A program made the position numbers and the translations under genes. Below, in pieces: positions 1-53,665 of a stretch of DNA of 64,000 bases (position 1 is the stretch's first letter; each line of letters starts with the position of its first letter). The notes beneath the pieces were generated by a model, which did not search any database, was not told where the DNA came from, and saw only the letters and a program-made list of their open reading frames with translations. Source of the DNA: an uncultured Bacilli bacterium. Its GTDB lineage: Bacteria; Bacillota_I; Bacilli_A; RF39; UBA660. The DNA is taken from contig CAKOLD010000001.1 in the NCBI GenBank assembly GCA_934096015.1, positions 27,069 through 91,068 of the forward strand. The letters are read 5' to 3'.

Positions 1-1926
1 TATCTTCATTATCTGTATTATTATACAATTCTTTCTTATTTATAATTGGTTTTTCTGCTAAATTTTCTTCCTCACTATCGATCAAATCTTTATCAATTTC
101 TGCTATAAATCTACTAGGTAAATTCATTTGATCTTTACCATAAAGCATTCTTCTTTTAGCATTTGTAATATATAATCTTTCTCTAGCTCTAGTTATTCCA
201 ACATAACATAATCTTCTCTCTTCTTCTAAATTATCTTCCATTAAAGACATATTATGTGGAAATATTCCTTCTTCCATTCCAATTAAAAAGACTACATCAA
301 ATTCCAAACCTTTAGCACTATGAATAGTCATCAAGGTTACTTCATCGTTATCTTCCTTATGACTACTTATATCACTAATTAAAGATATTTCTTCTAAAAA
401 ATCTCCTAAATTAACACACCCAGTTCTCTCTTCAAAAGAAGCTGTTATACTTTTAAATTCCAATAAATTATCTAAACGTAATTCATTTTCTAAGTTTTTT
501 TCTTCTTCTAAAGATTCCTTTAATCCTGTTTTTTCAAGCACAGCATCAATAAGTTCGGTTAAACTCATGTTATTACTACACTCAACTAAATCTAAAATAA
601 TTTTTTTAAATTCCAACTCCTTCTTTGTAGACAAAGCTTCAAACATACTAATACCTTCAATAGAACTAATATTTTCTAAATTTTTAATAGCACTATCTCC
701 AATACCTCTTTTTGGAACATTAATAATTCTTCTTAAACTAACCTCATCATTATTATTATAAATCAATCTTAAATATGAAATTAGATCCTTTATTTCTTTA
801 CGATTATAAAAATAGTAACTACCGACAACTTTATAAGGTATTCCCTTTTTTAAAAACATTTCTTCAACAACACGACTCTGAGCATTAGTTCTATATAAAA
901 CTCCAATTTCACTTTTTTTATAACCCTGTTCTAACAAAGATTGAATTTCACTTAAAACCAAAGTTATTTCATGTTTTTCATCATAACTTCTTAAATACTT
1001 TATTTTTACCCCTTCACCCTTTTCGCTCCACAGTTTTAAATCTTTTCTCTCTTTATTATTTTTTATTACACTATTAGCTGCATTCAAAATATTATTAGTA
1101 CTTCGATAATTTTCTTCTAGTTTTATAATTTTGGCATCAGGATAATCTTTTTCAAAATTAATAATATTTTTATAATCAGCTTGTCTAAAAGCATATATAC
1201 TTTGATTTACATCACCTACAACAAATAAATTTCGGTATTTTTCTGCAAGTAATTTACAAAGTTTATATTGAACAGGATTAGTATCTTGATACTCATCGAT
1301 TAAAATATATTTAAATTTATCTTGATAATGTTCTAAAACAGTTTTATCATTTCTAAAAAGTTCTACTGGTTTAACAAGCAAATCATCAAAATCAACACTA
1401 TTATTATTTTTCATCATAACCTGATATTTTGTATAAACATCAACAACAACTTTATCAATTGGAGTATTAAAAAATTTATCAAGTTCCATTTGACTTAACA
1501 TTTGATTTTTAATAAAACTAATTTTATTTCTTATATAGTATGGACTATACTGTTTAGTATCCAAATTTAAATTCTTTAATATTTTTTTTATTATACTAAG
1601 TACATCTTCTGAATCAATAATTGTAAAATTTTTATCTAAACCAACTAAAGCATAGTTTTCTCTAATTACTCTTAATCCAAATGAATGAAAAGTCCCAATA
1701 AAACTATTAATCGGTCCTAACATAGCACTTATTCTATCACGCATTTCTTTAGCCGCTTTGTTAGTAAATGTAATTGCTAATATATTATAATCATTAACAC
1801 CATTTTCAATAAGTTTAGTTATTCGGGTAGTTAAAACACTTGTTTTTCCACTACCAGCTCCAGCCATGACTAAACATGGACCTTCTTTGACATTTACCGC
1901 TTCTATTTGTTGTTTATTCAATTTTT
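1..1926 (-). CDS. pcrA: ATP-dependent DNA helicase PcrA/UvrD family; the 3' end runs off the window (about 640 aa visible)
   Basis: Minus-strand ATG at 1924-1926 is preceded by an AGAGGTAG RBS. The N-terminus MDTKKLNKQQIEAVNV...GPCLVMAGAGSGKTSVLTTRI carries a Walker A motif with UvrD-type helicase motifs. The open frame continues to position 1. It is absent from the ORF track only because there is no stop in the window. Confidence 0.8.
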
Positions 1927-2045
1927 TTGTATCCATAACTACCTCTATTTTTCCTAATTAATTATACCAAATATATTTTTTTTATTAAATAGTTTTAAAA
2001 ATTTTTGTACAAAAAAAGATGTATAAAAAATAATAAACATCTATT

Positions 2046-2351
2046 TTATATATTGTAATTAATTAAGTCATCAACAGAATTATTTAAAATATCAACTAAC
2101 ATATCTTCGTTTAACTTAGTAAAATTTTGTTTTATCAATTTTAAAGGTAAACAAAACAAATCAATTCTATTAAGTAATATATTCTCAATGTTATTTACAC
2201 CTAAATCATATAAATAGTTGATGACTTCTTTGACATTTTTTTTCATTAATTCCAAGTTTTTTATAATATTTAAATCATTAGACTTAAGAATATTTTCAAT
2301 TACTTCATCACTCAAGTCAAATTCTTTTAAATAATTAAGCATTACGCACAC
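2046..2351 (-). CDS. mTERF-like repeat protein, C-terminal portion (probably the 3' part of a frameshifted gene, see 2342..3376)
   Basis: The 101 aa ORF has about 30-aa helical repeats of the form LxxLGxxxxxIxxILxxxxxLFxLP (for example INYLYDLGVNNIENILLNRIDLFCLPLKLIKQNFTKL) that resemble mTERF motifs. It overlaps the upstream ORF by 10 nt in a different frame. Confidence 0.4.
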   Translation of the reverse strand: MCVMLNYLKEFDLSDEVIENILKSNDLNIIKNLELMKKNVKEVINYLYDLGVNNIENILLNRIDLFCLPLKLIKQNFTKLNEDMLVDILNNSVDDLINYNI

Positions 2352-3376
2352 CTCTTACGTCCCGCTTCTCTTGTCTTTCCATAATTTGTTATAAAAAATG
2401 CTCTAATATTATCCAAATATTTAGGATCATTTTTTGGGACTTCTCCATAATAACTCATTTTTTGGATAGTTTCAAGTCGTTTATCTAATTCAACATATCC
2501 TAAAACTTCATAGCCAAGTCCTTTACTTAAGTTTGTAACTTCAACCCCATGTGCTTTTAAAATTTCCACATTACTTTTTAGCAAGTCTTTATTTACCACA
2601 AAAACATTACCACAATATTCAATCATAGTTGGAACATCTAACCCAAAACTATGTATCTCATTTACTAATGATTCCAAATCACTAGTAAGAAGTATTACAG
2701 GTTTATTAATAATTACATTCCTAACATTAACATTATTTTCCTCTAATATTTTTAAATTTTTTAAAAACAAATCATAATTCCCCGGAATTTCTTCTGGAGT
2801 ATTTTTCATAAAAATAGCTGGAATAGACTCAATAGCTTTTCCAAGACACCTTCCATCAATCACTCCATCATTCCTAAAAACATCAACAATATCTCCTATC
2901 AATTTTTTGTTTGAAAACATTAAAATATTTAAAATAATATTAGGATCAGATAATCTATTAATTATTCTATTTTCAGGTTTCTTAGAATTCTTGATAAACT
3001 TAGCAGTTTGTTCAACTTCTTTCAAACTTTTAACATTTTTCATATAATTCAAATTTGTTTCACTTAAATCACCAGATTCAATACCAAGATAACTTAATAT
3101 ATCAGACCAAGTAATTTCATTTTTAGGAGAAACATTAGTTTTCTCAGTTACATAATGTTCTTGTAACCCTAAGAGTTTAACATTATATACAGCAATTTCA
3201 TACATTATTTGATATAAAAAAGAATCAATTTCATTTATTTCACTCTTTTTAGCCACTTGCTCAATACAATTTATATCGGAAGCATTAATTATTTCATTCG
3301 AGTTTACTTTATTAACCAAATAATTTATTTCTGGTGTATATAACTTAGATAATAAATTTAATAAATTCTCAGACAT
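2342..3376 (-). CDS. hypothetical protein with mTERF-like helical repeats (N-terminal portion)
   Basis: The 344 aa ORF has repeats such as NLKILEENNVNVRNVIINKPVILLTSDLESLVNEIHSFGLDVPTMIEY and LLKSNVEILKAHGVEVTNL. Its C-terminal tail ...TREAGRKRCA looks like out-of-frame read-through into the next ORF. Confidence 0.4.
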   Translation of the reverse strand: MSENLLNLLSKLYTPEINYLVNKVNSNEIINASDINCIEQVAKKSEINEIDSFLYQIMYEIAVYNVKLLGLQEHYVTEKTNVSPKNEITWSDILSYLGIESGDLSETNLNYMKNVKSLKEVEQTAKFIKNSKKPENRIINRLSDPNIILNILMFSNKKLIGDIVDVFRNDGVIDGRCLGKAIESIPAIFMKNTPEEIPGNYDLFLKNLKILEENNVNVRNVIINKPVILLTSDLESLVNEIHSFGLDVPTMIEYCGNVFVVNKDLLKSNVEILKAHGVEVTNLSKGLGYEVLGYVELDKRLETIQKMSYYGEVPKNDPKYLDNIRAFFITNYGKTREAGRKRCA

Positions 3377-3388
3377 AATAAACCTCCT

Positions 3389-4036
3389 TTACCATTTATT
3401 GTGGTTTTTTTTACCCAACAACACTAAATTTCTCTGGGTAATATATTTTAGTAACTGCCATTTTTCACTCATTATTAATCCACTTTTCTTTAAAACATCA
3501 TTAAATTCTTCTAAATTAGTAAGTGGAATAATAAGTTCATCATCTTTAAAATACTTTAAATATTTTTGATACAAATCATCTGCCATTTTTAAACTATCCA
3601 AATAACTTTCATTACTTTCTTTAAATTCTAAAACAAATTCTTTAATATGATTTGCTTGTTCATCCAACCAATGTTGTGCCTCATCTTTCTTTAATTCCAG
3701 GTTTTCATCAACTTTACCCTCTAAAATTAATTCAGTAAAATTCTTAGAAACTTCTGAATAATATTCAAAATTTTTCAAACATTCTTCTGGATTATTATAA
3801 TTCACTACCTCTATAATTTTACCAAAATCCTCCAAAGAAATTAAAGCCAAATCATCCCCATTTATATATAAAACATCTTTTAAAGTCTGCTTTTTCAAAA
3901 TATTAACTATATCATTTACTCTATTTACTTTATCCTCAAATTGTTTAATTTGAATCTGTAAAAAATCTATTTTTTTGTGTAATTCGGAAACAAAAGTCTT
4001 AACAACTATCATATGTAAGCCTCCTACTATCACCAA
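3389..4036 (-). CDS. hypothetical protein (acidic, predicted helical)
   Basis: 215 aa ORF with no recognisable family. It is co-oriented with the mTERF-like gene and pcrA. The true start may be the internal MIVVKTF. Confidence 0.35.
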   Translation of the reverse strand: MVIVGGLHMIVVKTFVSELHKKIDFLQIQIKQFEDKVNRVNDIVNILKKQTLKDVLYINGDDLALISLEDFGKIIEVVNYNNPEECLKNFEYYSEVSKNFTELILEGKVDENLELKKDEAQHWLDEQANHIKEFVLEFKESNESYLDSLKMADDLYQKYLKYFKDDELIIPLTNLEEFNDVLKKSGLIMSEKWQLLKYITQRNLVLLGKKNHNKW

Positions 4037-4149
4037 TTATACCATACTTATTAATATAATACAAACAAATATTCAATATACAAAAACTTTATAAAATTGT
4101 AAAATAAACAAATATGTGATATATTTAAAAAAAATAAAGAGGTGATTTT

Positions 4150-4362
4150 ATGGATAACAAAGAATACAACATCGATATTGAAAATACTAATATAATTCCA
4201 ATACCTGAAGAGGCCAGAAAATTACTTAATACAGAATCAAATAAAAGTAATAATTACGAAAAAAAATTAACAAAAAAGAATTGTATTATTTTAGTAGTTT
4301 TATTCATGGTATTAGTAGTTACAATAACTAGTGTTATTTATAAAATGATAATTGCTAAATGA
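4150..4362 (+). CDS. small membrane protein (70 aa, one C-terminal TM helix)
   Basis: Strong RBS AAAGAGGTGA lies 5 nt upstream of the ATG. It has a hydrophobic C-terminus ILVVLFMVLVVTITSVIY. Its stop overlaps the start of the next ORF (ATGA). Confidence 0.35.
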   Translation: MDNKEYNIDIENTNIIPIPEEARKLLNTESNKSNNYEKKLTKKNCIILVVLFMVLVVTITSVIYKMIIAK

Positions 4363-4613
4363 AAGAACTTGAATATTATGTAAAGAACATAAGTAAAGAC
4401 TATCAACTTAAAAAAGTCAACAAAAATCTTCTATTAACAAACTATGAAATAAATGTTTTAAAAAAATATAATATTAGTTACAACACATGTAATTCGTATA
4501 ATGAAATTTTATATTTAATTGATATCATTTTAAACAATGATTATTTAAAAGATTTAGAAGACATATCAATAAGTATTAGTGAAAGAAATTACTATCAAAA
4601 CACAAACAAATAG
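4359..4613 (+). CDS. hypothetical small protein (84 aa)
   Basis: Translationally coupled to 4150..4362 and followed by a terminator hairpin. Confidence 0.25.
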   Translation: MKELEYYVKNISKDYQLKKVNKNLLLTNYEINVLKKYNISYNTCNSYNEILYLIDIILNNDYLKDLEDISISISERNYYQNTNK

Positions 4614-4637
4614 GAATGCGCACACATTCCTATTTTT
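4613..4637 (+). terminator. rho-independent terminator hairpin, GGAATG-cgcaca-CATTCC then TATTTTT
   Basis: Perfect 6-bp stem followed by a T-run. It sits between the converging small ORFs and smpB. Confidence 0.5.
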
Positions 4638-5064
4638 AAATATTCCTGGATTGTTCCCTTTTTAAATCTCTCTCTTTTATAGTTTCTCTTTTATCGTAAA
4701 GTTTTTTGCCCTTACACAAGCCAAGCAAAATCTTAACGTAATTATTCTTAAAATATAATTTTAAAGGAACTAAACTATATCCTTCTTTTATAACACCTTC
4801 ACGTAGCTTTTGAATTTCATTTTTTTTAAGTAACAACTTTCTTTCTCTTCTTTCGGGAACATTATATCTGTTACCTTCAAAATAAGGAGCAATATACATA
4901 TTAATTACGTAAACCTCACCATTTTTTACCCGAGCATAAGTATCTTTTAAATCTGCGCTTCCCTTACGAATAGATTTTATTTCAGTCCCCGTTAAAACTA
5001 TACCAGCTTCTATTTCTTTTAAAATAAAATAATCAAAATAGGCTTTCTTATTTTTTATTTCCAT
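4636..5064 (-). CDS. smpB: SsrA-binding protein SmpB
   Basis: [35 protein letters not shown]...YIAPY matches the SmpB family. The start is taken at the internal Met, with a GGTGAT RBS. It sits immediately downstream of rnr, the classic rnr-smpB pair. Confidence 0.85.
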
Positions 5065-7162
5065 CTTTATCACCATCAACCAAAACAAAATCAATAGTAC
5101 GTGCTTCTTTACTAGCAGCGACACATTTAACAGTTACTTTATCACCAATTCTATAAGTTTTTTTTGTATTTTCCCCAACTAAACTTAATAAATTTTCCTC
5201 ATAATTATAATAATCGCCTTTCAGTGTGTTAACATGAACTAATCCTTCAACTAAATTATCAAGTTGTACAAAAAAGCCAAAATTAGTAACTGTGTCTATT
5301 ACACCATCATATATTTCGCCAATTTTATCTTCCATATATTCGGCCATCTTCATATCATCAACTTCTCTTTCGGCTTCAACACTTTTTTGCTCTCTTTCAC
5401 TAGCCTGTTCAGCAATTGTAACCAAATTTGTATCCCAATAATTTATCGTTTCTCTTGATAAATCGTGGTCAAAAAGATAAGTTCGTAGTAATCTATGCAC
5501 GATTAAATCAGGATATCTTCTGATTGGAGACGTAAAATGTGTATAACATGAACTAGCTAAACCAAAGTGACCTATATTTTCCTTTTGATAAATAGCCTTT
5601 TTCATACTACGTAAAAGCATACTGCTTAATATTTTATATTCTGGTTTATCACTTAACTCTTCTAATAGTCTTTGCATATCTTTAGGGCTTACTGAATTAT
5701 ATTTTCCTTTAATAGTATAGCCTAATAAACTAATTAATTTTAAAAACTGTTCTATTTTCTCACTACTTGGTTCTCCATGAGTCCTATAAATAAACGGTAA
5801 ATCCATATTAAAAATATGAGTAGCTACAGTTTCATTAGCAGCAATCATAAAATCTTCAATAAGTTTTTCTCCATCTTCTCTGACTCTTTTTTCAATAGCA
5901 ACAACTTTTTTATTCTTATCAACAATAATTTTTGGTTCATCCAAATCAAAATTAATGTATCCTTTTCTCTCTTTATGTTTTCTCAAAATATGAGCAAGTT
6001 CATTCATTTCTAATAAAGTATCCTTGTATTCTGTGTATTCAGGATCAACAATATTTCTCATCAATATATCATTTACTTTTGCATAAGTCATTTTAATTCT
6101 TGACTTAATAAATGAAGGAAAAATGTTATAATCAACGACGTCTCCCTTAGAATCTATTTTCATTTCACAACTTATAGTTAGTCTTACTTGATTTGGATTC
6201 AAAGAACATATCCCATTGGATAATTTATGTGGTAACATCGGAATAACACTATCAGCTAAATAACTGCTTGTTCCACGTGCTAAAGCATCTACATCCAGTG
6301 GACTATTCAAAGAAACATAATGGCTAACATCAGCAATATGAACCCCTAACCAATAAAAATCTTTTTCTTTTTTTATACTAATCGCATCATCTATATCTTT
6401 AGTATCAGCACCATCTATAGTAAATATCATTTCTTGAGTTAAATCTGTTCTTCCTACTTTTTCTTGTTCACTTACTTCATTAGGCATATCTTCTGCCTGT
6501 TGCATTGATTCTTTGCTAAACTCTTCAAATATTCCATATTTATACGCAACTGTTTTTATATCAACTCCAGGATCATCCTTGTGACCAATAACAGTAACTA
6601 CACGTCCATAATAACGATTTTTACTAAGTTCTTTAATCAAAGAAACTAAAACTTTAGTTCCATCAACTAAACCTCTAGAACTAACTTTATCTAAAACTAT
6701 TTCAAGATCCTTTTTTTCATCATCAAGTTTAATAAAAACATCATCATTTTTGTTAACAATTTCACCTATAATATTTTTTAAATTTCTATTTAAAATTCTA
6801 ACTACTCGACCTTCAGTTTTATTCTTTTTATTATTTAGTTCCACTAACACATAATCTTCATTTACTGCCCCATTCAAATCGTCTTTAGCAATATAAATAT
6901 CTTCTTCATCTGGTAAAACTAAAAAACCAAAACCTTTTTTATTAACATCTAGTTTTCCTAATTTAAAGTTAGGACAATTTTTATATAAAACATATTTTTC
7001 TTTATTAGTTTTATACATAACATTTTCTTTGTATAGTTCTTCCAAACTATTTTCTAAATCTTTTAATTCTTGAGGAGTTTTTAAGCCTAACAAATCATTT
7101 ATTTCAATCAAAGTCAAAGCTTCCTTTTCTTGTTCCATTACACTAATTATTTTATCCTTCAT
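5048..7162 (-). CDS. rnr: ribonuclease R
   Basis: 704 aa with an RNB catalytic region ([26 protein letters not shown]) and C-terminal S1-like and basic domains. Confidence 0.9.
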
Positions 7163-18246: not shown

Positions 18247-18321
18247 GGGTCTATAGCCAAGTGGTAAGGCATGGGACTGCAACTCCCTGATTCGTTGGTT
18301 CAAATCCGACTAGGCCCTCCA
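18247..18321 (+). tRNA. tRNA-Cys (anticodon GCA)
   Basis: Acceptor stem GGGTCTA/TAGGCCC, discriminator T and encoded CCA. D-loop AGCCAAGTGGTAAGGC. Anticodon loop CTGCAAC. T-arm GGTTCAAATCC. Confidence 0.85.
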
Positions 18322-21920: not shown

Positions 21921-22273
21921 TGGTGGAGCCGAGCGGAATCGAACCGCTGTCCAAAATAACTTCAAAATAACGTCTACAGGTTTAGTTAGAATTAAAATTT
22001 CATTAATAAAAAAGTATCTAACAAACTATTTATTAACTAAGTTTATAAATTATTCATTTTTTAATCTAAACAAATTAAAAAATATATCTTGTATATATGA
22101 ACCAAATATTAATCTACAAGAAAACCAATATTCAGCGCCAAAATTGCTAAATTAAGCAAATGCTAAGGCAGTATTATAATTATTGTCAGTTAATTTAAAC
22201 TGTGCTACTTAGGATTAGCTACCACCTGCAATTAAATCAAAACATTATTCTGTCGAAACCAATAAACGGCCCC
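21921..22273 (-). ncRNA. ssrA: tmRNA (ssrA), about 353 nt
   Basis: Minus strand 5' end is GGGGCCGUUUAUUGGUUUCGACAG. The 3' end GGUUCGAUUCCGCUCGGCUCCACCA gives a tRNA-Ala-like acceptor/T-arm. The internal tag reading frame GCA CAG UUU AAA UUA ACU GAC AAU AAU UAU AAU ACU GCC UUA GCA UUU GCU UAA gives the tag AQFKLTDNNYNTALAFA. Confidence 0.85.
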
Positions 22274-28283: not shown

Positions 28284-28530
28284 AATTTCTCCTTCCATAA
28301 TAAAAAACATGAACAAAAGGACGAAAAAATTCCGCGATACCACCTTTATTCATGTTTTAGCATGCTCTCAAATTTTTAACGCAATTAACGATTTAAACTC
28401 CAGAACCATGTTCATTGTTTTTTTATAATTCTCTTTCACCATTTAAGAACTCTCTAAATATAAAGCCACAATTACTCTTTCCTTCTTCGTCTAACAAGTG
28501 TATTCTAACATAATATTATTTTTTATACAA
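28284..28530 (-). promoter_or_regulatory. T-box riboswitch leader (Met specifier) upstream of metG
   Basis: Minus-strand T-box sequence AAAGGUGGUAUCGCGGAA (plus 28330-28348). Intrinsic terminator ACAUGAAUAAAGG...CCUUUUGUUCAUGU plus U-run overlaps the antiterminator. AG-box GAAAGAGUA. Candidate specifier AUG-A in CAAUGAACAUGG. Confidence 0.7.
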
Positions 28531-38191: not shown

Positions 38192-38212
38192 TATAAACAT
38201 CCTTTTACTAAT

Positions 38213-38292
38213 AAAAAAAGCGCACATCAACAGAGGTTGTTATGGCTGCTGTCTTCCGACTCTGACCAGGTTTCAACTTATCAATTGCGCAA
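38213..38292 (-). ncRNA. ffs: small SRP RNA (4.5S/scRNA-type, ffs)
   Basis: Minus-strand ACCUGGUCAGAGUCGGAAGACAGCAGCC matches conserved domain IV, including the GGAA tetraloop. It is closed by the GCGCA/UGCGC helix and followed by a U-tract. The tadA-scr-dnaX position is conserved with B. subtilis. Confidence 0.6.
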
Positions 38293-38333
38293 ATAAATTA
38301 TAACAAATTTAAAGTTAGTTAACAACCCTATGG

Positions 38334-41064: not shown

Positions 41065-42975
41065 CTATATATCCAAATCATCTGCATAAACTGCATTTTC
41101 TTCAATAAATTTCTTTCTTGGTTCTACATCTTCACCCATTAATATTTCAAAAGCTTTATCCGCTGCTATAGCATCCTCAATGGTTATTTGAACTAAAGTT
41201 CTATGCTCAATATTCATCGTAGTGTCACATAACTCTTCTGGGTTCATTTCTCCTAACCCTTTGTTTCTACTTACTTCTACCTTTGTAGTTTCTGGTAAAG
41301 AAGCTAAATATTCGTCTCGTTCTTCATCTGTTAAAACATATTTAGTAGTCTTTCCATGTTTAATATTATACAAAGGAGGTTGTGCAGCATATACATAACC
41401 ACCTTCAACAATAGGTTTAAAAAATCTATAAAATAATGTTAAAAGTAAAGTTCTAATATGTCCACCATCGACATCGGCATCGGTCATGATTATAATTTTA
41501 TGATATCTTAATTTAGTAATATCAAACTCATCACCTATACCAGTTCCAAAAGCAGTAATCATACTCCTAATTTCTGCATTTGCCAAAGCTCTATCTAAAC
41601 GAGCCTTTTCAACATTTAATATTTTTCCTCTTAAAGGCAGAATAGCTTGAGTTTTAGGATCTCTACCACCTTTTGCAGATCCACCAGCTGAATCACCCTC
41701 GACTATAAAAAGTTCAGATATACTTGCATCTTTACTAGAACAGTCAGTTAATTTTCCCCAAGTATTTGGTAAATCTAATCCACCTTTTCTACGAGTTAAT
41801 TCACGAATTTTTTTTGCAGCTACCCTTGCTCTAGATGCTGTCATACATTTTTCAATAATAACCCTTGCTGCATCAGGATTTTCCATTAAATATCTCTCAA
41901 ATCCTTTAGAAAAAACATCTGAAGCTATCTTTTTTACTTCACTATTACCTAATTTTGTTTTAGTTTGACCTTCAAATTGAGGATTAGGATGCTTACAAGA
42001 AATTATCATCGTTAAACCTTCTCTTGTATCTTCTCCTGTTAAATTATCATCATTATCTTTTAAAAATTTATTTGTTCTTGCATAATTATTAATAATTCTA
42101 GTTAATGCCTGTTTTACACCATCTTCGTGCGTTCCACCTTCTGTAGTATGAATATTATTTGTAAAAGAATAAATGTTGGGATTATAAGAATCATTATATT
42201 GCATTGCAACTTCTATTAAAATATCATTTTCAGTTCCTTCAACAAATACTATGTCATCATGAAGTGGTTTCTTATCTTTATTAAGCATTTGAACATATTC
42301 AATAATACCACCATTATAATGGAAAATATCCTTCTTTTCATCATCTCTCAAATCAATAAGAGTAATCCTTATTCCTTTATTCAAAAAAGCCATTTCTTGC
42401 AATCTTTTTGCTAAAATTGAATAACTATATATAGTTGTTTCAAAAATTTCAGGATCAGCTTTAAAACTAACAGTAGTTCCTGTTCTATCAGGATCACATT
42501 CACCAATAACCTTCAAACTTTCAACAGGTTTTCCACCATTTTCAAACCTTTGAAAAAATACTTTTCCTTCCCTATATACCTTTACTTCCAACCAATCACT
42601 AAGTGCGTTAACAACGCTGGCTCCAACTCCGTGTAATCCACCACTAACTTTGTAGCCTCCGCCACCAAATTTTCCTCCAGCATGTAAAACAGTAAAAATT
42701 GTTTCAATTGTTGAAAGGCCAGTTTTCTGATTCATACCTGTTGGCATTCCTCTACCGTCATCTTTTACTGTAATAACGTTATTTTTACCAATTTCAACTT
42801 CAATATCATCACAATAACCAGCTAAAGCTTCATCAACTGCATTATCAACAATTTCCCAAACCAAATGATGTAATCCCATTTCATTTGTATTTCCTATGTA
42901 CATACCAGGTCTTTTTCTTACTGCTTCTAAGCCCTCCAAAACCTGTATGGCATTATCAGAATAATTATCTTTCAT
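41065..42975 (-). CDS. gyrB: DNA gyrase subunit B
   Basis: [16 protein letters not shown]...[16 protein letters not shown] is the GHKL ATPase signature. Toprim region [10 protein letters not shown]. Confidence 0.97.
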
Positions 42976-44060
42976 ATTTTTTCCTCCACTATACCATTAT
43001 CAACAATAAATACTTTACTATCTCTAACTATTTTTCTTTTAACTTTACTTAATTCTGTAGTCGTTATAAACGTCTGAACATCATCACTTATATAACTTAA
43101 AATATTATTTATTTTTTCTCTATCTAATTCACTAAATAAATCATCCAAAATAAGTATAGGATAATTACCTCTTATATTTTTAAACATTTCTAATTCCGCC
43201 AATTTAAAAGCAATTATAGCATTTTTTTGTTCTCCTTCACTACCATAATCTTTTAAATTAGTATCATCTTTAAAAAATATAAAATCATCATGGTGAACTC
43301 CAAAATGAGTTTTACCAAAATTAATATCTTTTTCTTCATATTTGATATATTTTTCCTTTATTTGTTCCCTACTCAGATCATAATCACTTACATATTTTAC
43401 AAATAACGAATCAGATTTACTTATTTTAAAATATATATCTTTTATTAAACAATTAATATCATTTATAAATTTCTTTCTAAATTCAAATATTTTGATTCCA
43501 TAATCTATAATATTATTAGTTAAAACTTCTAAATATTGTTTTGAAGCATAACCATTATACATTAATGTTTTCAAATAAGAATTACGTTGCTTTACTAACT
43601 TATTATAATTGTTTAACAAGCACAAATATTCATTGTCAAGTTGAGATAATTCCATATTTATTAGTTTTCTTCTAGTACTAGGAGTATCTTTTATTAACTT
43701 TAAATCATCAATACTAAAAAGTATTACATTAATTTTAGAAACATATTCAGATAGTTTTTTTACTCTATTATTATTAATATTTACTCTTTTATCGTCATTT
43801 GATATCACAATTTTATAATTATCAATAAATGTTGATTTTATATCAGCATCAACTTTCAAAAAATCGCAATCTTTTTTAATTAATATACCATCTGTTTGGC
43901 CTCTAAAAGATTTAGTAAAAGCTAAAACAAATAAAGCTTCCACTATATTTGTTTTACCCATCCCATTTTTTCCTATAATTATGTTTTTTTTAGGTGAAAA
44001 ATCTAAGTTCAATTTGTCATAATTTCTAAAATTTACTAAATTCAAATTATTAACTTGCAT
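42972..44060 (-). CDS. recF: DNA replication and repair protein RecF
   Basis: [18 protein letters not shown] is Walker A. Signature region DDLFSELD. Canonical gyrB-recF position. Confidence 0.9.
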
Positions 44061-44163
44061 CTAAAACCATATTTTCACCCCAAAATTAAATTTTTAGTAT
44101 TTTTACATACTCCTATACCCGCTATAATTATAGCACAAATTAGACTAACAAAAAAGAGAAAAC

Positions 44164-44625
44164 TCATTTTTCTCCTCTTCTTTTTCTTAAAACATATTCC
44201 AATCTATTAGCTTTTAATATTTGATTATTTAAAACATTGTAACTTAAAGAAAATTCCAAACTTTCTTCATTTAAAAACTGTACAATACTTTTATTTTGGT
44301 CTTTATCAAAATAATATTTATCTATATTATTCAAACTTATCCAAGCACACTGTTTTAAACGAGGAGAAGTTGTTGGAAAAAAGACAATAGGATTATTTTC
44401 CTCTACTATTATGGGAGCTTTATAACTAATTCCAATTAAAGAATCTGTTCCTTTTATTCTTCCATTCATAGAACTTCCATAATATTTACAATTAAAATCC
44501 ATTATCTTATTTGGTTTACTATCAACCAAAAAGCAATCATCCTCTTCATATACTAAAGACTTTTTTTCTCCACATGGAATTATAGCCAATGTTTTTTTTG
44601 AAATAGAATAATTTTTCATATTCAC
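44164..44625 (-). CDS. comK: ComK-family protein (competence transcription factor homolog)
   Basis: LAIIPCGEKKSLVYEEDDCFLVDSKPNKIMDFNCKYYGSSMNGRIKGTDSLIGISYKAPIIVEENNPIVFFPTTSPRLKQCAWISLNNI aligns along its length with B. subtilis ComK (AVLPEEIDGK..CSKIIEKDCVFYV...SCRFFGSSYAGRKAGTYEVTKISHKPPIMVDPSNQIFLFPTLSSTRPQCGWISHVHV). Confidence 0.7.
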   Translation of the reverse strand: MNMKNYSISKKTLAIIPCGEKKSLVYEEDDCFLVDSKPNKIMDFNCKYYGSSMNGRIKGTDSLIGISYKAPIIVEENNPIVFFPTTSPRLKQCAWISLNNIDKYYFDKDQNKSIVQFLNEESLEFSLSYNVLNNQILKANRLEYVLRKRRGEK

Positions 44626-44716
44626 CCCCTAACCCATAATTCTTATAACACTATAGAGATGTCCATAAATGTCATAATTTGTCATAAAAAAAGAAAAATA
44701 CATTTTTTGCATTTTT

Positions 44717-45835
44717 CTAATAAGTTTTAATAGGCAGAATTAATTGAATTAGAGTTTCATCACTTAATGATTTTAATATAATTGGACTACTATCATTATT
44801 TAAAAGAATCAAAAGTTCTTCTTCATTAAAAGTTCTTAAAGCTTCCATCATATATTTAGCACTAAAAGAAATAGCCATCTCATTTTCTGTATTTTTTGTA
44901 GCTTTAACTTGATCTTCTACTTTACCAATTTCAGACGAATAAGAACTAATGAAAAGCATATCTTTTTTTGTTTCCATTCTAACTATATTTTTATCTTTAC
45001 TTTGTGTTAATAACGCTGCTCTATCAATTGAAGAATAATAATCATTTAAATTAGTATTTATAATCATATCAAATTCATTTGGAATTAAATTATTAACATT
45101 TGGATAAGTTCCACTTAAAAGATTTGTTTGAAAAATCAAATTTTTATACTTAAATAAAACTTTATTACTAAATAAATGAACTTCTAAACTATCTTCTTCT
45201 GTTAAAATTTTATCTAATTCAGTAATATTTTTTCCTGGAATTACAATATCAACAGTTTCTGGATAATCATTTTCAAGAACAATTGTTTTTTTTGCTAAAC
45301 GATATGAGTCTGTTGCTACACATTCCATAACATTTCCATTAATCTTTATATTAATTCCTGTTAAAAGAGGTCTAGATTCTTGCATAGATACAGCAAAAAT
45401 AGTTTGCTTAATCATTTTTTTAATAACTTCACTATCAATTACAATTGGAGTTTTAGCATCTTCTAAAATAATTTGTGGATAATCCTCACTATTTAAACAA
45501 TTTAAATTATATTGACTTGTTTCTGTATAAATTCTAATTTTTAATCCATCTATAACTTCAATATTAATAGCATCACTAGGCATTTTCCTAATAATATCAA
45601 TAATGTATTTACTTTGAATAATTATAGTACCTGTTTGCTCTATATTTATTATATCTTCCTTTTTTATAAAAGTTTTTATAGTTAAATCACTATCACTAGC
45701 TAGTAAGTATAAACCTTCATCTGTTAATTGAAACATTATTCCATTCAAAATAGGTATAATATTTTTTGGACTAATTGCTTTTACTACGTTACTTAAATTT
45801 TCTAATAAAATATTTTTATCAATTGTTAATTTCAT
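44717..45835 (-). CDS. dnaN: DNA polymerase III beta sliding clamp
   Basis: 372 aa in the dnaA-dnaN operon position. The three-domain clamp pattern begins MKLTIDKNILLENLSNVVKAI. Confidence 0.9.
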   Translation of the reverse strand: MKLTIDKNILLENLSNVVKAISPKNIIPILNGIMFQLTDEGLYLLASDSDLTIKTFIKKEDIINIEQTGTIIIQSKYIIDIIRKMPSDAINIEVIDGLKIRIYTETSQYNLNCLNSEDYPQIILEDAKTPIVIDSEVIKKMIKQTIFAVSMQESRPLLTGINIKINGNVMECVATDSYRLAKKTIVLENDYPETVDIVIPGKNITELDKILTEEDSLEVHLFSNKVLFKYKNLIFQTNLLSGTYPNVNNLIPNEFDMIINTNLNDYYSSIDRAALLTQSKDKNIVRMETKKDMLFISSYSSEIGKVEDQVKATKNTENEMAISFSAKYMMEALRTFNEEELLILLNNDSSPIILKSLSDETLIQLILPIKTY

Positions 45836-45957
45836 TTTTATTCCTTCTTTCTTATATAAGTATTATCTTTATTATTAGCGTGTAAAATGTTGAAAAATGT
45901 ATTAATTACCTAAAACAAAAGTAAAAGTGTTTGTTAATAAATATTTAATTATCCACA

Positions 45958-47316
45958 TTATCCAATTTTTTCTTTAATTTGTTTAATCTGTTCATTCAAT
46001 TCTTCATTAGTTTTTAATTCTTCTGTTACCTTTTCTATAGCATGTAGAACGGTTGAATGATCTCTATTTCCAAACTCTAATCCGATCCTAGAAACTGTTT
46101 CTTCAGTAGTCATTCTGCAAATATACATTGCGATTTGTCTAGCATTATTAATATCCGCAGTTCTTTTTTTACTTTTTAAATTATCAACAGTTAAATTAAA
46201 ATATTCTGCAACTCCCTTTTGTATCTTAATTATATTATTAGTTCCATAATAGGATTTTCCTAAATAATCTTTTAAAGCTTCAGTTGCAAATTCTAAATTT
46301 ATGCATTGTGGAGACATTATTGCCGCATAAGCATATAATCTTGTTATTGCACCTTCTAAGTGTCTAACATCACTTTCACAATTATTCGCAATATATTCAA
46401 TAACTTCATTTTGAACTAATTTTGCTACTTCGTGCCCTGCCATCTTATCCCGTAATATTTTACATCTTAATTCAAAATCTGGTGGAAATATATTGACCGT
46501 TAAGCCCCATCTAAATCTCGTTCGTAGTCTATCTTCAAGCAATTTTAAATCATCAGGAGATCTATCACTACTAATAATAATTTGTTTATTAGAGTCATAT
46601 AAAGTATTAAATGTGTGAAAAAATTCTTGCTGTGTTTTTTCAGCTCCACCTAAAAATTGAATATCATCAATTATTAAAACATCTATATTTCTGTATTTTT
46701 CTTTAAAATGATCAACAATATCATAATTATCAGTATTTTTTTTGTTAATTCCAATAAAATCAGAAATAAATTCTTCACTTGTAACATATAAAACATTTAA
46801 ATCTGAATGGTCAACAATATAATTTCCTACAGCGTGCATTAAATGAGTTTTCCCCAGCCCACTCTTTCCGTGGATAAAAAGAGGATTGTATATTTTTCCA
46901 GGCTGTTCAGCAACCGCAACAGCTGCTGTTTGTGCAAATCTATTAGAATCCCCTATTACAAAATTTTCAAATTTATATTTAGGATTTAAGTTAGAATTAA
47001 AATTTCTTTCTTTATTTGAAATATCATCTAAAGATCTTGTTACTTGCTTTTTTTCATCTATTTCCTCATGAATTAAAAACTCCAAATCATAAGTATTTCC
47101 AGTCAAACTAGTAATAATCTCTTCAATTAAGTCATAATATGTAGTAGACAAAAATGTTTTATGAAATGACATTGGAACTTCGATAACTAATTTATCATCT
47201 TCCATAGAATACAATTTAGTATCTTTAAACCAAGTATCATAAGAAACACTCATCAATTTGTTCTTTATAACCTTTAAAAAATTATTCCAAAGTGTATCTT
47301 TGTCCAAAAAAACCAC
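45958..47316 (-). CDS. dnaA: chromosomal replication initiator protein DnaA
   Basis: NPLFIHGKSGLGKTHLMHAVGN is the AAA+ Walker A. The C-terminal DnaA-box binding domain includes VDNLKSKKRTADINNARQIAMYICR. Confidence 0.97.
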   Translation of the reverse strand: MVFLDKDTLWNNFLKVIKNKLMSVSYDTWFKDTKLYSMEDDKLVIEVPMSFHKTFLSTTYYDLIEEIITSLTGNTYDLEFLIHEEIDEKKQVTRSLDDISNKERNFNSNLNPKYKFENFVIGDSNRFAQTAAVAVAEQPGKIYNPLFIHGKSGLGKTHLMHAVGNYIVDHSDLNVLYVTSEEFISDFIGINKKNTDNYDIVDHFKEKYRNIDVLIIDDIQFLGGAEKTQQEFFHTFNTLYDSNKQIIISSDRSPDDLKLLEDRLRTRFRWGLTVNIFPPDFELRCKILRDKMAGHEVAKLVQNEVIEYIANNCESDVRHLEGAITRLYAYAAIMSPQCINLEFATEALKDYLGKSYYGTNNIIKIQKGVAEYFNLTVDNLKSKKRTADINNARQIAMYICRMTTEETVSRIGLEFGNRDHSTVLHAIEKVTEELKTNEELNEQIKQIKEKIG

Positions 47317-47616
47317 CCCGCATTCATGACACCTTTTTCTACAGATAATTTTAAACTACTTTTTCACAAAATAAAAGACAAAATTTTTAAAATTTGCAAA
47401 ATCCACAAAATATCAACATAATTTTCAACACACAACATCACTAAATAAGCTAAAAAACAAACTTTTCAACATTTTCCACAAATTGAAATTCACATCAATA
47501 TTAAAATTTCCACAATTAACGTTTAAAAATAAATTAAAATAAAAATCAAAATAAAATTGACATCTAAAGAGTAATGTTGTAGAATAAAGTAGCTAAAAAG
47601 AGGTGGAGGTGTCAAA
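47317..47616 (+). promoter_or_regulatory. dnaA-rpmH intergenic region: oriC-type cluster of co-oriented DnaA-box-like 9-mers (TTNTCCACA variants) plus dnaA/rpmH promoters
   Basis: AAATCCACA at 47399-47407, TTTTCCACA at 47472-47480, ATTTCCACA at 47506-47514 and TTTTTCACA at about 47360. The background is very AT-rich. A perfect TTATCCACA also sits at 45949-45957 in the dnaA-dnaN spacer. Confidence 0.5.
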
Positions 47617-47739
47617 ATGAAAAGAACTTATCAACCAAATAATCGTAAAAAGAGTAAAAAACATGGTTTTTTTGCTAGAAAAGTAACGAATATTTTAAAA
47701 AATAGAAGAAAAAAAGGACGTAAACGTTTATGCAAATAA
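47617..47739 (+). CDS. rpmH: 50S ribosomal protein L34
   Basis: [54 protein letters not shown]. Below the ORF-track length cut-off. Confidence 0.9.
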
Positions 47740-47740
47740 T

Positions 47741-47762
47741 ACCACATTTATGTGGTTTTTTC
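47741..47762 (+). terminator. hairpin ACCACA-ttta-TGTGGT plus TTTTTT between rpmH and rnpA (attenuator/terminator)
   Basis: Perfect 6-bp stem immediately followed by a T6 run. The rnpA RBS GGAGG follows at 47768. Confidence 0.5.
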
Positions 47763-47779
47763 TTCATTTGGAGGCAAAA

Positions 47780-48097
47780 ATGAAAAAAGAAGAAAGAGTG
47801 AAGGATAATATTTTATTTAATGACATTATCAAAAAAGGCCTAAAATTACAAAATAAATATTTTATTATATATTATAAGGATAATAATTTAGAGAAAAGTC
47901 GTTTTGGTATTGCAGCTGGAAAAAAATTAGGAAATGCAGTTACAAGAAACAAACAAAAAAGAAGAATTAGGATGTTATTAGGTGAAAATAAAAAATTATT
48001 TGAAAAAAATAGAGATTATATTATAATAATAAAAGAAGCATGTCTTAAAGCCAAATTTGATATTCTTCAACAAGAAATAAAAAATATAATGAAATAG
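47780..48097 (+). CDS. rnpA: ribonuclease P protein component
   Basis: MKKEERVKDNILFNDIIKKG...RFGIAAGKKLGNAVTRNKQKRRIR is the RnpA RNR motif region. Start is taken at the ATG at 47780 after GGAGG. Confidence 0.85.
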   Translation: MKKEERVKDNILFNDIIKKGLKLQNKYFIIYYKDNNLEKSRFGIAAGKKLGNAVTRNKQKRRIRMLLGENKKLFEKNRDYIIIIKEACLKAKFDILQQEIKNIMK

Positions 48098-48104
48098 GTG
48101 GAAA

Positions 48105-49055
48105 ATGAACAAAAAAAATTTAAAAAAAATAGTAATACTTATTGCAGCAGTGCTTTTATTAACAACAGGTTGTACACAATATGTTACCGATAACAAAAAT
48201 AAAAGAATCACAAACGAGGAAACAGGTCAAAGTTTAACAAGTAATTTGTTATGTAAGCCAACTGGCAGTTTGTACAATATCTATGAAAAATATGAAAAGT
48301 ATATGACCGTAAAACTAAAAGACTTACCAGAATGTAAAAATATTAAACCATTTAATACAAAAAATTATAGTGGTTTATGGGAAAGTATTTTTGTTTCTCC
48401 AATAGCTTGGTCAATAGTAAATCTTGGAAAATTAGTTAAAAATTATGGTATTTCCGTAATGCTAATAGGAATATTTATCAGATTATTATTGATGCCTTTA
48501 AGCATTAAGCCATTAAAACAGTCAGAAAACTTAAAGAAAGCTCAGCCAGAAATAGAAAAAATAGAGAAAAAATATAAAGACAAAACTGATTCTGATTCAA
48601 TGATGAAAAAGAGCCAAGAAACTATGTTAGTATACAAAAAATACAACATTAATCCACTAGGAAGTTGTTTATTATCATTTATTCAATTTCCATTATTCTT
48701 TGCTTTTCTAGAAGCTATCAATAGAGTACCAGCAATATTCGAGGGAAATTTATGGTCACTTCAATTAGGTACTACACCAATGATTGGAATTAAATCAGGA
48801 AATTATGTATATTTAATACTTATCCTTATTATTATATTAACCACGTACTTCTCATTTAAATTAAGTATGAATAATGGCATTAACTCAGAACAACAAAAAC
48901 AAATGCAATTTATGACAACATTTATGTTAATCTTTATCTCAATTGCATCATTTAGCTTGCCAACCGCAATTGCACTTTATTGGTGCGCAACAAACGGATT
49001 AAACGTTTTACAAACTGTGATATTTAAAAAAATGAAAGATAGAAAAGGAAATTAG
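48105..49055 (+). CDS. yidC: membrane protein insertase YidC/Oxa1 family (lipoprotein form)
   Basis: Lipobox LLLTTGC. Five-TM core. Canonical rnpA-yidC-jag order. Confidence 0.85.
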   Translation: MNKKNLKKIVILIAAVLLLTTGCTQYVTDNKNKRITNEETGQSLTSNLLCKPTGSLYNIYEKYEKYMTVKLKDLPECKNIKPFNTKNYSGLWESIFVSPIAWSIVNLGKLVKNYGISVMLIGIFIRLLLMPLSIKPLKQSENLKKAQPEIEKIEKKYKDKTDSDSMMKKSQETMLVYKKYNINPLGSCLLSFIQFPLFFAFLEAINRVPAIFEGNLWSLQLGTTPMIGIKSGNYVYLILILIIILTTYFSFKLSMNNGINSEQQKQMQFMTTFMLIFISIASFSLPTAIALYWCATNGLNVLQTVIFKKMKDRKGN

Positions 49056-49059
49056 TAAT

Positions 49060-49671
49060 ATGGAAGTAAAAGTATATGAAGGAAAAACAAAAGAAGAGAT
49101 TATTGAAAATATAAATAATGAATTAAATTTAGAAGAAAAAGATTATGTTTATACTGTAGAAACGACTAAAGGGTCTCTATTGAAAAAAAGTATGACTAAA
49201 ATGAATGTCTATTTGTTAACAGATCTTGCAGAATATTCAAAAAGTATTTTAGATGATATTCTCCAAAAAATGGGAATTGAAACAAAATATGAAACAAAGA
49301 TAAGAGATAATCAAATAGAAATAAAAATGTTTTCTGATAATAATTCACTTTTAATTGGAAGTGAAGGAAGAACATTAAAATCATTGAATTTGATTTTACG
49401 TCAAGCCATTGCCAATGAAATAAATGTTTATCCAAACATATACTTAGACGTTGAAAATTATAAAGAAAAACAACAAAAAAGATTAGAAAGACTAGCTAAT
49501 AACTTAGCTAAAGATGTAATAAGAACTAAAATAGAAATTAAGATGGATAATATGAACGCTTTTGAAAGAAGGATTGTTCATAATGCACTATCAACAAATA
49601 GTAAAGTAACCACTGTTAGTGAGGGTGTAGAACCCAATAGACATGTAATAATAAAATTAAAAGAAGACTAG
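49060..49671 (+). CDS. khpB: Jag/KhpB RNA-binding protein (KH + R3H domains)
   Basis: C-terminal R3H motif ...MNAFERRIVHNALS.... Position after yidC. Confidence 0.8.
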   Translation: MEVKVYEGKTKEEIIENINNELNLEEKDYVYTVETTKGSLLKKSMTKMNVYLLTDLAEYSKSILDDILQKMGIETKYETKIRDNQIEIKMFSDNNSLLIGSEGRTLKSLNLILRQAIANEINVYPNIYLDVENYKEKQQKRLERLANNLAKDVIRTKIEIKMDNMNAFERRIVHNALSTNSKVTTVSEGVEPNRHVIIKLKED

Positions 49672-49747
49672 TTCTTCTTTTTTACATGTCAAATTATTTC
49701 CCGGGAAATAATTATGTGCTATAATACATTAACGAAAGGAAAAAAAT

Positions 49748-51097
49748 ATGGAAACTGATACGATATGTGCTGTGTCAACTGCATTAGGTGTAGGAGCAAT
49801 TTCAATAATAAGATGTAGTGGACAAGATAGTATAAAAATTGTCAACAAAATGTTTGATGGAAAAAATCTAGAAGAAGTACCTTCACACACAATTCATTAT
49901 GGATTCATAAAAGACGAAAATGGCGAAAAAATAGACGAAGTTCTAATTAGTGTAATGAAATCTCCAAAAACATTTACAACAGAAGATGTAGTAGAAATCA
50001 ATTGTCATGGAGGAATTAGTACAACAAATAAGGTCCTAGAGTTACTTTTAACAAATGGATGCCGTTTAGCAACAAGAGGAGAATTTACTAAAAGAGCATT
50101 TTTAAATGGAAGAATTGATTTGTTAGAAGCAGAAGCAATAGGGGACTTAATAAATTCAGAAACAGAATCATCTAGAAAAATGGCAATAAATCAAATTACT
50201 GGTAATTTATCATTATTAATAGAAAATGCCAGAAAAGACATATTAGATTTATTAGCAAACATAGCAGTAAATATTGATTATCCAGAATATGAAGATGCAG
50301 AAATAATAACTCATGATTTGCTAAAACAAAAGTTGATACCTATTAAGAAAAAATTAGAAAATTTATTAGAAGAATCTAAAAACGGAAAAATTATAAAAGA
50401 AGGTATAAATGTATCAATAATTGGAAGACCAAATGTTGGAAAAAGCAGCATTTTGAACCATCTTTTAAATGAAAATAAAGCAATTGTCACTAACGTTGCA
50501 GGAACTACAAGAGATATAGTTGAAGGTGAAATAATTTTAAAAGGAATCAAATTAAATTTAACAGACACAGCTGGTATTAGAAAAACAGATAACATAGTTG
50601 AGCAAATTGGGGTAGAAAAAAGTAAAGAAATATTAAAGAATACTGATTTAGTAATTTTAGTATTAAATAGTAGTGAAAATTTAACGGAAGAAGACGAATA
50701 TTTATTGAATTTAACAAAAAACAAAAAAAGAATAATTTTATTAAATAAAACCGATTTACCAACAAAACTAGAAATAAAAGAGGAATATATTTTAGGTAAT
50801 ACAACTTCACCCAATGGATTAGATTTACTAAAAAATAAAATTTGTGAAATGTTTAATTTAGAGGAAATTAATTCTAAAAATTTAACTTTTTTATCAAACG
50901 CCAGACAGATTTCTCTTGTCAAACAATGCGTAAATTTAATCGATAATATATTAATCACAATTGATACAGAAATTCCAATTGATATGTTGGAAATTGATAT
51001 TAAATCAACTTTTGATTTACTTGGAGAAATTATTGGAAAAACATACAAGGAAGAACTAATTGATGAATTATTTTCAAAATATTGTTTAGGAAAGTGA
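49748..51097 (+). CDS. mnmE: tRNA modification GTPase MnmE
   Basis: [23 protein letters not shown]-domain [16 protein letters not shown]-terminal CxGK. Confidence 0.9.
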
Positions 51098-51105
51098 GGA
51101 TAAAC

Positions 51106-52968: not shown

Positions 52969-53665
52969 AGATGAATTTTTAAAAGAATTAAATAAAAAGA
53001 ATATAAATTTGAAAGAAAATCAAATTAATCAATTTGAAGTATTCTGTAAAGAATTATTAAATTACAATCAACATACAAATTTAACTGCAATTACTGAAAC
53101 TTCTGAAGTTTATTTAAAACACTTCTTTGATTCATCATTATTAGCGACTTCTATTAACTTTAATGAAATATCCACAATGTTAGATATTGGTTGTGGAGCA
53201 GGATTTCCTGGTATTGTAATAAAAATATTATATCCTCATTTAAAACTTACACTTTTAGATTCCAATAATAAAAAAACAAAATTTTGTCAATATATAGTAA
53301 ATAAATTAAATTTAAAAGATGTAGAAATAATAAATGAAAGAGCTGAGATATACATTGATAAAAAAAGAGAATATTATGATTTAGTAACAGCACGTGCTGT
53401 AAAAGATCTCCAAATATTAACAGAATTATCTATTCCATATGTTAAAATAAATGGCTTTTTTATAGCGATGAAATCGGATTGTAAAATAGAATTAGAAAAC
53501 AGCTTAAGAGGAATAACATTACTAGGTGGAAAATATATAGAAACAAAAAAAATAGAAAACTATATTAATTTAGGACAAAGAGAATTTATAATTATCAAAA
53601 AAATTAATAAAACCTCAATTAAGTATCCAAGAAATTATAGTAAAATAGTAAAACAACCATTGTAA
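52952..53665 (+). CDS. rsmG: 16S rRNA (guanine527-N7)-methyltransferase RsmG (GidB)
   Basis: [13 protein letters not shown] is the SAM motif. Position after mnmG. Confidence 0.85.

Follow-up and report, generated by a model that had tools for sequence, protein, structure and literature searches.

Does a run of mTERF-like repeats that lies across two overlapping open reading frames (ORFs) belong to one broken gene or to two intact ones? The question is raised by positions 2046-3376 of a 64,000-nucleotide stretch of DNA from an uncultured Bacilli bacterium (GenBank assembly GCA_934096015.1, contig CAKOLD010000001.1, positions 27,069 to 91,068; hereafter the window), where an earlier note had proposed a single gene of about 445 amino acids (aa), disrupted by a frameshift or expressed through one. 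Proteins of the mTERF family have been treated as organelle-specific eukaryotic factors of mitochondria and chloroplasts. We call the 344-aa ORF A, the 98-aa ORF B and the gene upstream of them X; their 3′ neighbor is pcrA. X, A and B all lie on the minus strand of the window, which has about 25% GC. The reading that we favor, with moderate confidence, is that A and B are coupled genes of an X-A-B operon whose products share the mTERF fold and assemble in a modular way. The locus is laid out as follows.

4075..4103, minus strand: promoter-like site TTTACA-17-TATATT upstream of X (10/12 matches in a consensus scan), a candidate operon promoter
3389..4012, minus strand: gene X, first gene of the cassette, encoding a 207-aa acidic helical protein without an assigned family; start ATG 4012, with GTAGGAGG upstream
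3374..3391, minus strand: X/A junction, with the X stop TAA at 3391..3389, Shine-Dalgarno sequence AAAGGAGG at 3390..3383, a 6-nt spacer and the A ATG at 3376..3374
2342..3376, minus strand: gene A, 344 aa, predicted to begin with a helical bundle, followed by a disordered linker and then by about six three-helix motifs of mTERF-like type
3173..3376, minus strand: predicted N-terminal helical bundle of A, residues 1-68
2372..3109, minus strand: helical-repeat (mTERF-like) region of A, residues 90-335, from predicted secondary structure
2447-2803, minus strand: part of A that aligns significantly to mTERF profiles in hhalign, residues 192-310
2345..2644, minus strand: C-terminal three-motif module of A, residues 245-344, a separate ORF of ~100 aa or of 225 aa in other clades
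2340..2356, minus strand: A/B junction, with Shine-Dalgarno sequence AAGAGGTG at 2356..2349, a 6-nt spacer and TAATG, in which the A stop occupies 2344..2342 and the B start 2342..2340
2046..2342, minus strand: gene B, a 98-aa acidic protein with three predicted mTERF-type three-helix motifs
1..1939, minus strand: 5′ part of pcrA (UvrD-family helicase; Pfam UvrD-helicase E 9.6e-89, UvrD_C E 5e-79), which runs off the window

A and B are two translationally coupled genes

The two ORFs are present on the minus strand, as the earlier note had said. In the ORF listing they fill 2046-3376, one of 344 aa at 3376..2342 and the other running from a GTG at 2351 to 2046. The reported overlap of 10 nt stems from starting B at this GTG, the first one in frame. 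From the ATG at 2342-2340, a start kept in all homologs, B is 98 aa long (N-terminus MLNYLKEF), and this ATG has one base (A) in common with the TAA stop of A, which makes the real overlap 1 nt. On the minus strand the junction reads GGA CGT AAG AGG TGT GCG TAA TG CTT AAT, and the 17-mer AAGAGGTGTGCGTAATG is found once in the whole window, at 2340-2356. Loci L001 to L017 have equivalent Shine-Dalgarno and start junctions (AAGAGGTGTGCGTAATG in L001, AAAGAGGTGCAGCATAATG in L002).

A translationally coupled pair is recognized by a start codon at or within the upstream stop, a Shine-Dalgarno sequence of its own at 5-9 nt, and conservation of the arrangement, all of which are found here. As in other coupled overlapping pairs of the TAATG or ATGA type, A and B share stop and start bases, and the Shine-Dalgarno sequence of B lies within the coding sequence of A. 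The C-terminal tail of A, TREAGRKRCA, had been judged implausible; it is the G-rich ribosome-binding site of B translated in the A frame, and similar tails recur in A relatives (KRCA, KKAA, RGAA). We conclude that the junction is an ordinary coupled-gene arrangement that was earlier misread as a frameshift.

An ancestral single gene of about 445 aa, whether a pseudogene broken by an indel or a fusion expressed via programmed frameshifting, would account for two overlapping ORFs that lie in different frames yet encode repeats of one kind. This explanation is scarcely tenable when the locus is compared with its relatives. We inspected 22 related loci, of which exact look-ups supplied four and species-representative genomes the other 18; in all 22 B is its own ORF, in a frame different from that of the upstream gene. 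The overlap varies from 1 nt (TAATG) to ~40 nt and is absent in L018 and L020. No fused A-B homolog was seen among these loci or in the homolog sets: relatives of A are 344-348 aa long, and the homologs of B, most of which start with ML.YLKE, measure 64-101 aa in 58 of 58 clusters, with none longer. Homologs are uniformly two separate genes, the very observation that the earlier note had named as speaking against its frameshifted gene.

The junction itself argues in the same direction. B has a canonical Shine-Dalgarno sequence, spacer and ATG; no slippery heptamer was found at the A/B junction; and the B frame of the window contains a stop codon five codons before the B ATG. Identical A and B proteins occur in the same arrangement in several independent assemblies (NCBI, ENA and Logan, on contigs of up to 140 kb), so an assembly indel is not credible. 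Constraint on B is also stronger than on A, with a mean column identity of 76% (35 invariant positions) against 41-51%; the C-terminus NNSxxDLINYNI of B is invariant, as are many polar positions. We conclude that A and B are two distinct, translationally coupled genes and not one broken gene. In annotation they should be kept as two genes, with the start of B moved to the ATG at 2342.

Genetic code 4 was considered as a reason for the A/B split and rejected. The genetic code is the standard bacterial one, in which TGA is used as a stop (of 39 long ORFs whose stop codon can be read, 8 end in TGA), and the junction is a TAA in a different frame.

Profile searches relate A to mTERF proteins

The earlier note had called both ORFs mTERF-like, which stands for A, whereas sequence comparison of B yields sub-threshold matches. 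Against 1.84 billion representative proteins, the A-family profile returned only 124 proteins at E <= 0.001. Its distant matches align to A residues ~205-320, often as several stretches, with library-wide E values of 7e-13 to 3e-5. All 10 of the distant matches tested pass Pfam mTERF, at 43-162 bits (cut-off 23.1), and these mTERF-positive matches include proteins of Euglena gracilis and of a snail, and one from a record that bears the label Woesearchaeota. When the A family was aligned with hhalign to an alignment of 13 mTERF-positive proteins, the match covered A residues 192-310 with a probability of 95.9% (E 5.4e-9). In the reverse direction, a hidden Markov model (HMM) built from those mTERF proteins retrieved A with E 4.1e-10, the sole significant one of the 161 ORFs of the window; B ranked second (E 0.079).

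Among individual A members, Pfam mTERF is the only recurring family (4/61 at E <= 0.01, best 2e-5). Among B members it is the second most frequent sub-threshold family (8/27 at E <= 10, best 4.9e-4), and a weak match over several repeats links B to a Pfam-positive snail protein. The motif signature can be seen in A, for example KPVILLTSDLESLVNEIHSFGLDV...NKDLLKSNVEILKAHGVEV. At the level of sequence profiles, A is a diverged mTERF homolog, and its repeat region shares ancestry with the proteins of Pfam mTERF.

Metagenomic proteins of 380-710 aa (P0150-P0199, e.g. P0179 = MBI1969848.1) also pass Pfam mTERF, one of them from a record labelled Candidatus Woesearchaeota. On this sequence evidence, the literature may understate how widespread mTERF-domain proteins are in prokaryotes; P0150-P0199 may be true prokaryotic proteins or eukaryotic contamination.

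Predicted structures of A and B

Helical repeats of about 30 residues, which the earlier note had read from the letters, reappear in the AlphaFold2 models of both proteins, which are all-helical and built of three-helix units. The model of B (from an alignment of 27 sequences) has a predicted local distance difference test (pLDDT) score of 94.2 and shows nine short helices arranged as three triplets. In the model of A (10 sequences; pLDDT 82.8), residues 1-68 form a helical bundle and residues 73-85 a disordered linker, after which come about six three-helix units. In both models the ~30-residue three-helix units form a superhelix, as expected of the fold. The best structural matches of both models are mTERF proteins, with MTERF1 first or second for each. 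The solved mTERF chains among these matches are 207-344 residues long, whereas B has only three motifs in 98 aa.

According to these models, the products of A and B adopt the mTERF fold, and B is a minimal three-motif module. B, which has the fold in its model, is probably also homologous to mTERF.

A proposed modular solenoid divided over several polypeptides

Gene A is itself divided into two overlapping ORFs in two clades, of 243 + 101 aa in L003 and L004 (L003:2856-3889, L004:2471-3504) and of 310 + 225 aa in L005-L009 (4420-6026). The split points map to residues 245 and 243 of the window protein, respectively, which is a boundary between repeat modules, and the two ORFs meet in ATGA-type junctions. 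Stand-alone proteins of ~100 aa, in about nine representative clusters, match A residues 245-343. A three-motif module of ~100 aa is viable as a separate polypeptide, because A is split at the module boundary and such stand-alone proteins exist. In predicted structure B is a further module, similar in size and fold to the C-terminal module of A.

We propose that the ~100-aa three-motif modules (the C-terminal module of A, and B) would be independent folding units, joined non-covalently into one mTERF-type solenoid, possibly together with X, and that coupled translation would deliver the subunits in fixed proportion. Because A is split near residue 244 in two clades and neither piece has been lost, the modules probably assemble non-covalently. 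The invariant C-terminus of B and its many invariant polar positions suggest that B contacts a conserved partner.

X and the conservation of the cassette

The earlier note had placed A/B in an apparent operon with PcrA and a protein of 215 aa. An ORF that matches no known family does lie 5′ of A, with its start most likely at ATG 4012, which makes it 207 aa. X precedes A, and pcrA lies 3′ in the closer clades, although the linkage to pcrA is gone in distant lineages. The window X protein is 66% identical over residues 1-196 to a 309-aa homolog in L001. It is shorter than the 307-328 aa of X in 13 relatives and lacks the C-terminal ~110 aa. Only 12 nt separate the X stop from the A start, so the missing C-terminus is not a frameshift; this part may be dispensable, or X may be truncated in the lineage of the window.

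The X family is kept upstream of A in 16 loci, in all clades, with homologs of 307-393 aa. Searches of X against Pfam, PDB sequences, NCBIfam and PADLOC gave no family match, and its N-terminal segment gave weak, sub-threshold matches to coiled-coil families only. With hhalign we detected no relationship of X to mTERF, A or B. NCBIfam and PADLOC gave no family for the proteins of the cassette. The length of A differs between clades: it is 344 aa in the clade of the window, ~400-530 aa elsewhere, and 633-692 aa in the homologs that are most distant.

The cassette is flanked in the closer clades by secG-rnr-smpB on one side and pcrA-(NTP transferase)-ligA on the other. In L019, L021 and L022, hsp20 follows the cassette instead of pcrA; in L021 the next genes are gltX, rplM-rpsI and tilS. 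Since the distant cassettes have other genes downstream, the association with pcrA is probably inherited synteny and not functional coupling. The spacer from B to pcrA is 106 nt long and contains a second promoter-like site at 1988..1961; promoter-like sites are weak evidence in DNA of 25% GC, where 30 were found and 23 expected. The hosts are uncultured Bacilli known as metagenome-assembled genomes (MAGs), recovered from the gut of humans (Hadza), goats and rabbits and from a small number of other samples. The label Tenericutes is attached to one MAG and Muribaculaceae to two, the latter probably mis-binned. From the sequences compared, X-A-B is a conserved three-gene cassette, and a probable operon, of uncultured gut Bacilli of ~25% GC.

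Three observations concern the immediate surroundings. In some Hadza-gut MAGs, extra ORFs of 198 and 454-457 aa lie between B and pcrA (L005:6398-8359, L007:6367-7740, L009:6354-7727) and may be an insertion element. Two small plus-strand ORFs at 4150-4613 of the window diverge from X, in the same position in L001-L004: one, of 70 aa, has a hydrophobic C-terminal segment that probably spans the membrane, and the other, of 84 aa, shares 4 nt with it; Pfam assigns no family to either. The gene smpB (4636-5124, minus strand) is listed as 162 aa from a GTG and overlaps rnr by 77 nt; the proteins of relatives are 141-142 aa, and its start is probably further downstream.

Comparison with known mTERF systems

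Like eukaryotic mTERF proteins (PF02536; human MTERF1-4 and plant mTERFs), A and B are predicted to stack three-helix motifs of ~30 residues in a solenoid. Eukaryotic mTERFs, however, are nucleus-encoded organelle proteins and basic, whereas A and B are bacterial chromosomal genes with net acidic products below the Pfam threshold. A carries in addition an N-terminal helical bundle, and the repeat array of A/B is divided over two or three polypeptides. The mitoribosomal mTERFs (Tetrahymena mS93, Chlamydomonas mL114 and Polytomella mL121) and MTERF4-NSUN4 share only 8-17% identity with A/B, and unlike MTERF4-NSUN4 the cassette has no gene for a methyltransferase partner. Both mS93 and mL114 have been described as mTERF proteins, and mTERFs that bind nucleic acids have a positively charged concave face (PMC8998825).

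The pTERF proteins, from Bacillota MAGs, were presented in 2024 in Nucleic Acids Research as the first prokaryotic mTERF-like proteins; they consist of 3-11 regular tandem repeats with a period of ~35 aa and bind specific DNA with nanomolar Kd (PMC11417379). Like A/B they are bacterial proteins (Bacillota, gut metagenome) with three-helix mTERF-like units and little identity to eukaryotic mTERFs. Going by the published description of pTERF, A/B differ in having degenerate, non-tandem motifs, an acidic character, a conserved three-gene cassette, a split architecture and the N-terminal bundle of A. No tandem repeat with a period >10 nt was found in 1900-4100, in contrast to the regular repeats of pTERF. 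These are the only published prokaryotic mTERF relatives that we found, and the X-A-B family, compared with pTERF by description, is a second and different bacterial family.

Weighing the mTERF assignment and the function of the cassette

A number of results weigh against the reading of A and B as modular mTERF proteins. The Pfam check on PF02536 that the earlier note had recommended calls neither window protein: single-sequence scans of A and B gave no mTERF match even at E <= 1, and both fall below the gathering cut-off of 23.1 bits, while homology shows for A at the level of the family profile. An hhalign comparison of B with the mTERF alignment was not significant (E 0.014, probability 3%), nor was that of A with B, which lends no support to their being paralogs. 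Profile searches of PDB sequences with the A, B and X families returned noise and no mTERF chain. A Foldseek search of the PDB with the A model gave nothing significant, the best matches being transcription activator-like effector (TALE) proteins at E 0.4. The models were built on shallow alignments (27 sequences for B and 10 for A), and spurious matches between helical repeats arise easily. The proteins are acidic, with an isoelectric point (pI) of ~4.5 for B (4.3-5.0 in 25/27 members), ~5.5 for A (mostly 4.9-6.1) and ~5 for X (4.6-5.3). Finally, the gene neighborhood yields no consistent functional clue.

Part of this would fit A and B being generic alpha-solenoids, convergent with mTERF or nearer to TALE/BurrH-type repeats, so that the likeness is not homology: the TALEs lead the Foldseek matches of A, non-significant as they are, the window proteins miss the Pfam threshold, and B lacks a significant profile link to mTERF. 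Compositional noise would not be expected to return Pfam mTERF members in 10 of 10 distant A matches tested, however, nor an hhalign probability of 96% together with a reciprocal HMM E value of 4e-10, and we consider a generic solenoid improbable. Three neighboring genes of unassigned function, with the extra ORFs between B and pcrA in L005, L007 and L009, could also be taken for a mobile or defense module instead of housekeeping genes. The cassette keeps a stable chromosomal place across clades (secG-rnr-smpB ... X-A-B-pcrA-ligA), B is very highly conserved, and the base composition equals that of the flanking DNA. PADLOC gave no credible match (best E 0.0025-0.011, 14-16 bits), and repeats and integrase genes were not found nearby. 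A mobile or defense role is on these grounds very improbable, though less so than a single broken gene.

Taking MTERF3, MTERF4-NSUN4 and the mitoribosomal mTERFs as models, we tentatively suggest, at somewhat less than even confidence, that the cassette encodes a housekeeping adaptor that would hold either DNA or a structured RNA (rRNA or a ribosome precursor), or recruit a partner protein to it. Because all three proteins are acidic, we keep open a protein-docking scaffold, at least for B, which is about as likely as direct binding of nucleic acid along the whole concave face. In the main functional rival, A-B, alone or together with X, would bind specific DNA sequences like MTERF1 or pTERF (as a roadblock terminator, repressor or fork barrier) and may act with PcrA. 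It draws on MTERF1 being the first or second structural match of A and B, on the presence of pcrA and ligA downstream in the closer clades, and on the specific DNA binding, with nanomolar affinity, of the prokaryotic pTERF1 and pTERF2 (PMC11417379). The acidity of X, A and B does not fit such a factor; the linkage to pcrA is gone in L019, L021 and L022, and a candidate promoter stands between B and pcrA. The repeats are moreover degenerate, unlike the near-identical tandem units of pTERF, with no tandem repeat at the DNA level. We regard a DNA-binding factor as unlikely, and the adaptor as the better proposal.

Other features of the window

GC skew turns from negative to positive near 47-48 kb, and the region 42975-53000 appears to hold the chromosomal replication origin. 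Near it, dnaA (47316..45961), dnaN and recF lie on the minus strand, and rnpA (47750-48097), yidC, jag/KhpB, mnmE and mnmG on the plus strand. The candidate oriC is the intergenic segment 47317-47749; X-A-B lies ~44 kb away and is co-oriented with replication. The window also contains the following RNA features.

18247-18321, plus strand: tRNA-Cys
21921-22273, minus strand: tmRNA, tag peptide DNNYNTALAFA
28314-28496, minus strand: T-box leader
38204-38301, minus strand: small signal recognition particle RNA

Significance for the mTERF family

The X-A-B locus introduces an unannotated bacterial family with the predicted mTERF fold and a naturally subdivided architecture that Pfam, NCBIfam and PADLOC do not recognize. 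B offers a minimal three-motif mTERF unit, predicted to fold well, for structural and binding studies, and the split architecture is a natural test of whether mTERF solenoids assemble from subunits. The family also gives one more piece of evidence on how the mTERF fold arose. As a bolder proposal, which we consider quite unlikely, X-A-B might be an essential, lineage-specific housekeeping machine of reduced-genome gut Bacilli, built from non-covalently joined mTERF modules and serving in roadblock termination, fork pausing or the chaperoning of rRNA and ribosome assembly, as mTERFs do in organelles. If this were true, free-living bacteria would possess a counterpart of the mTERF system, and the finding would be relevant to the question whether mTERFs are of bacterial origin or were exchanged between eukaryotes of the gut and their bacteria.

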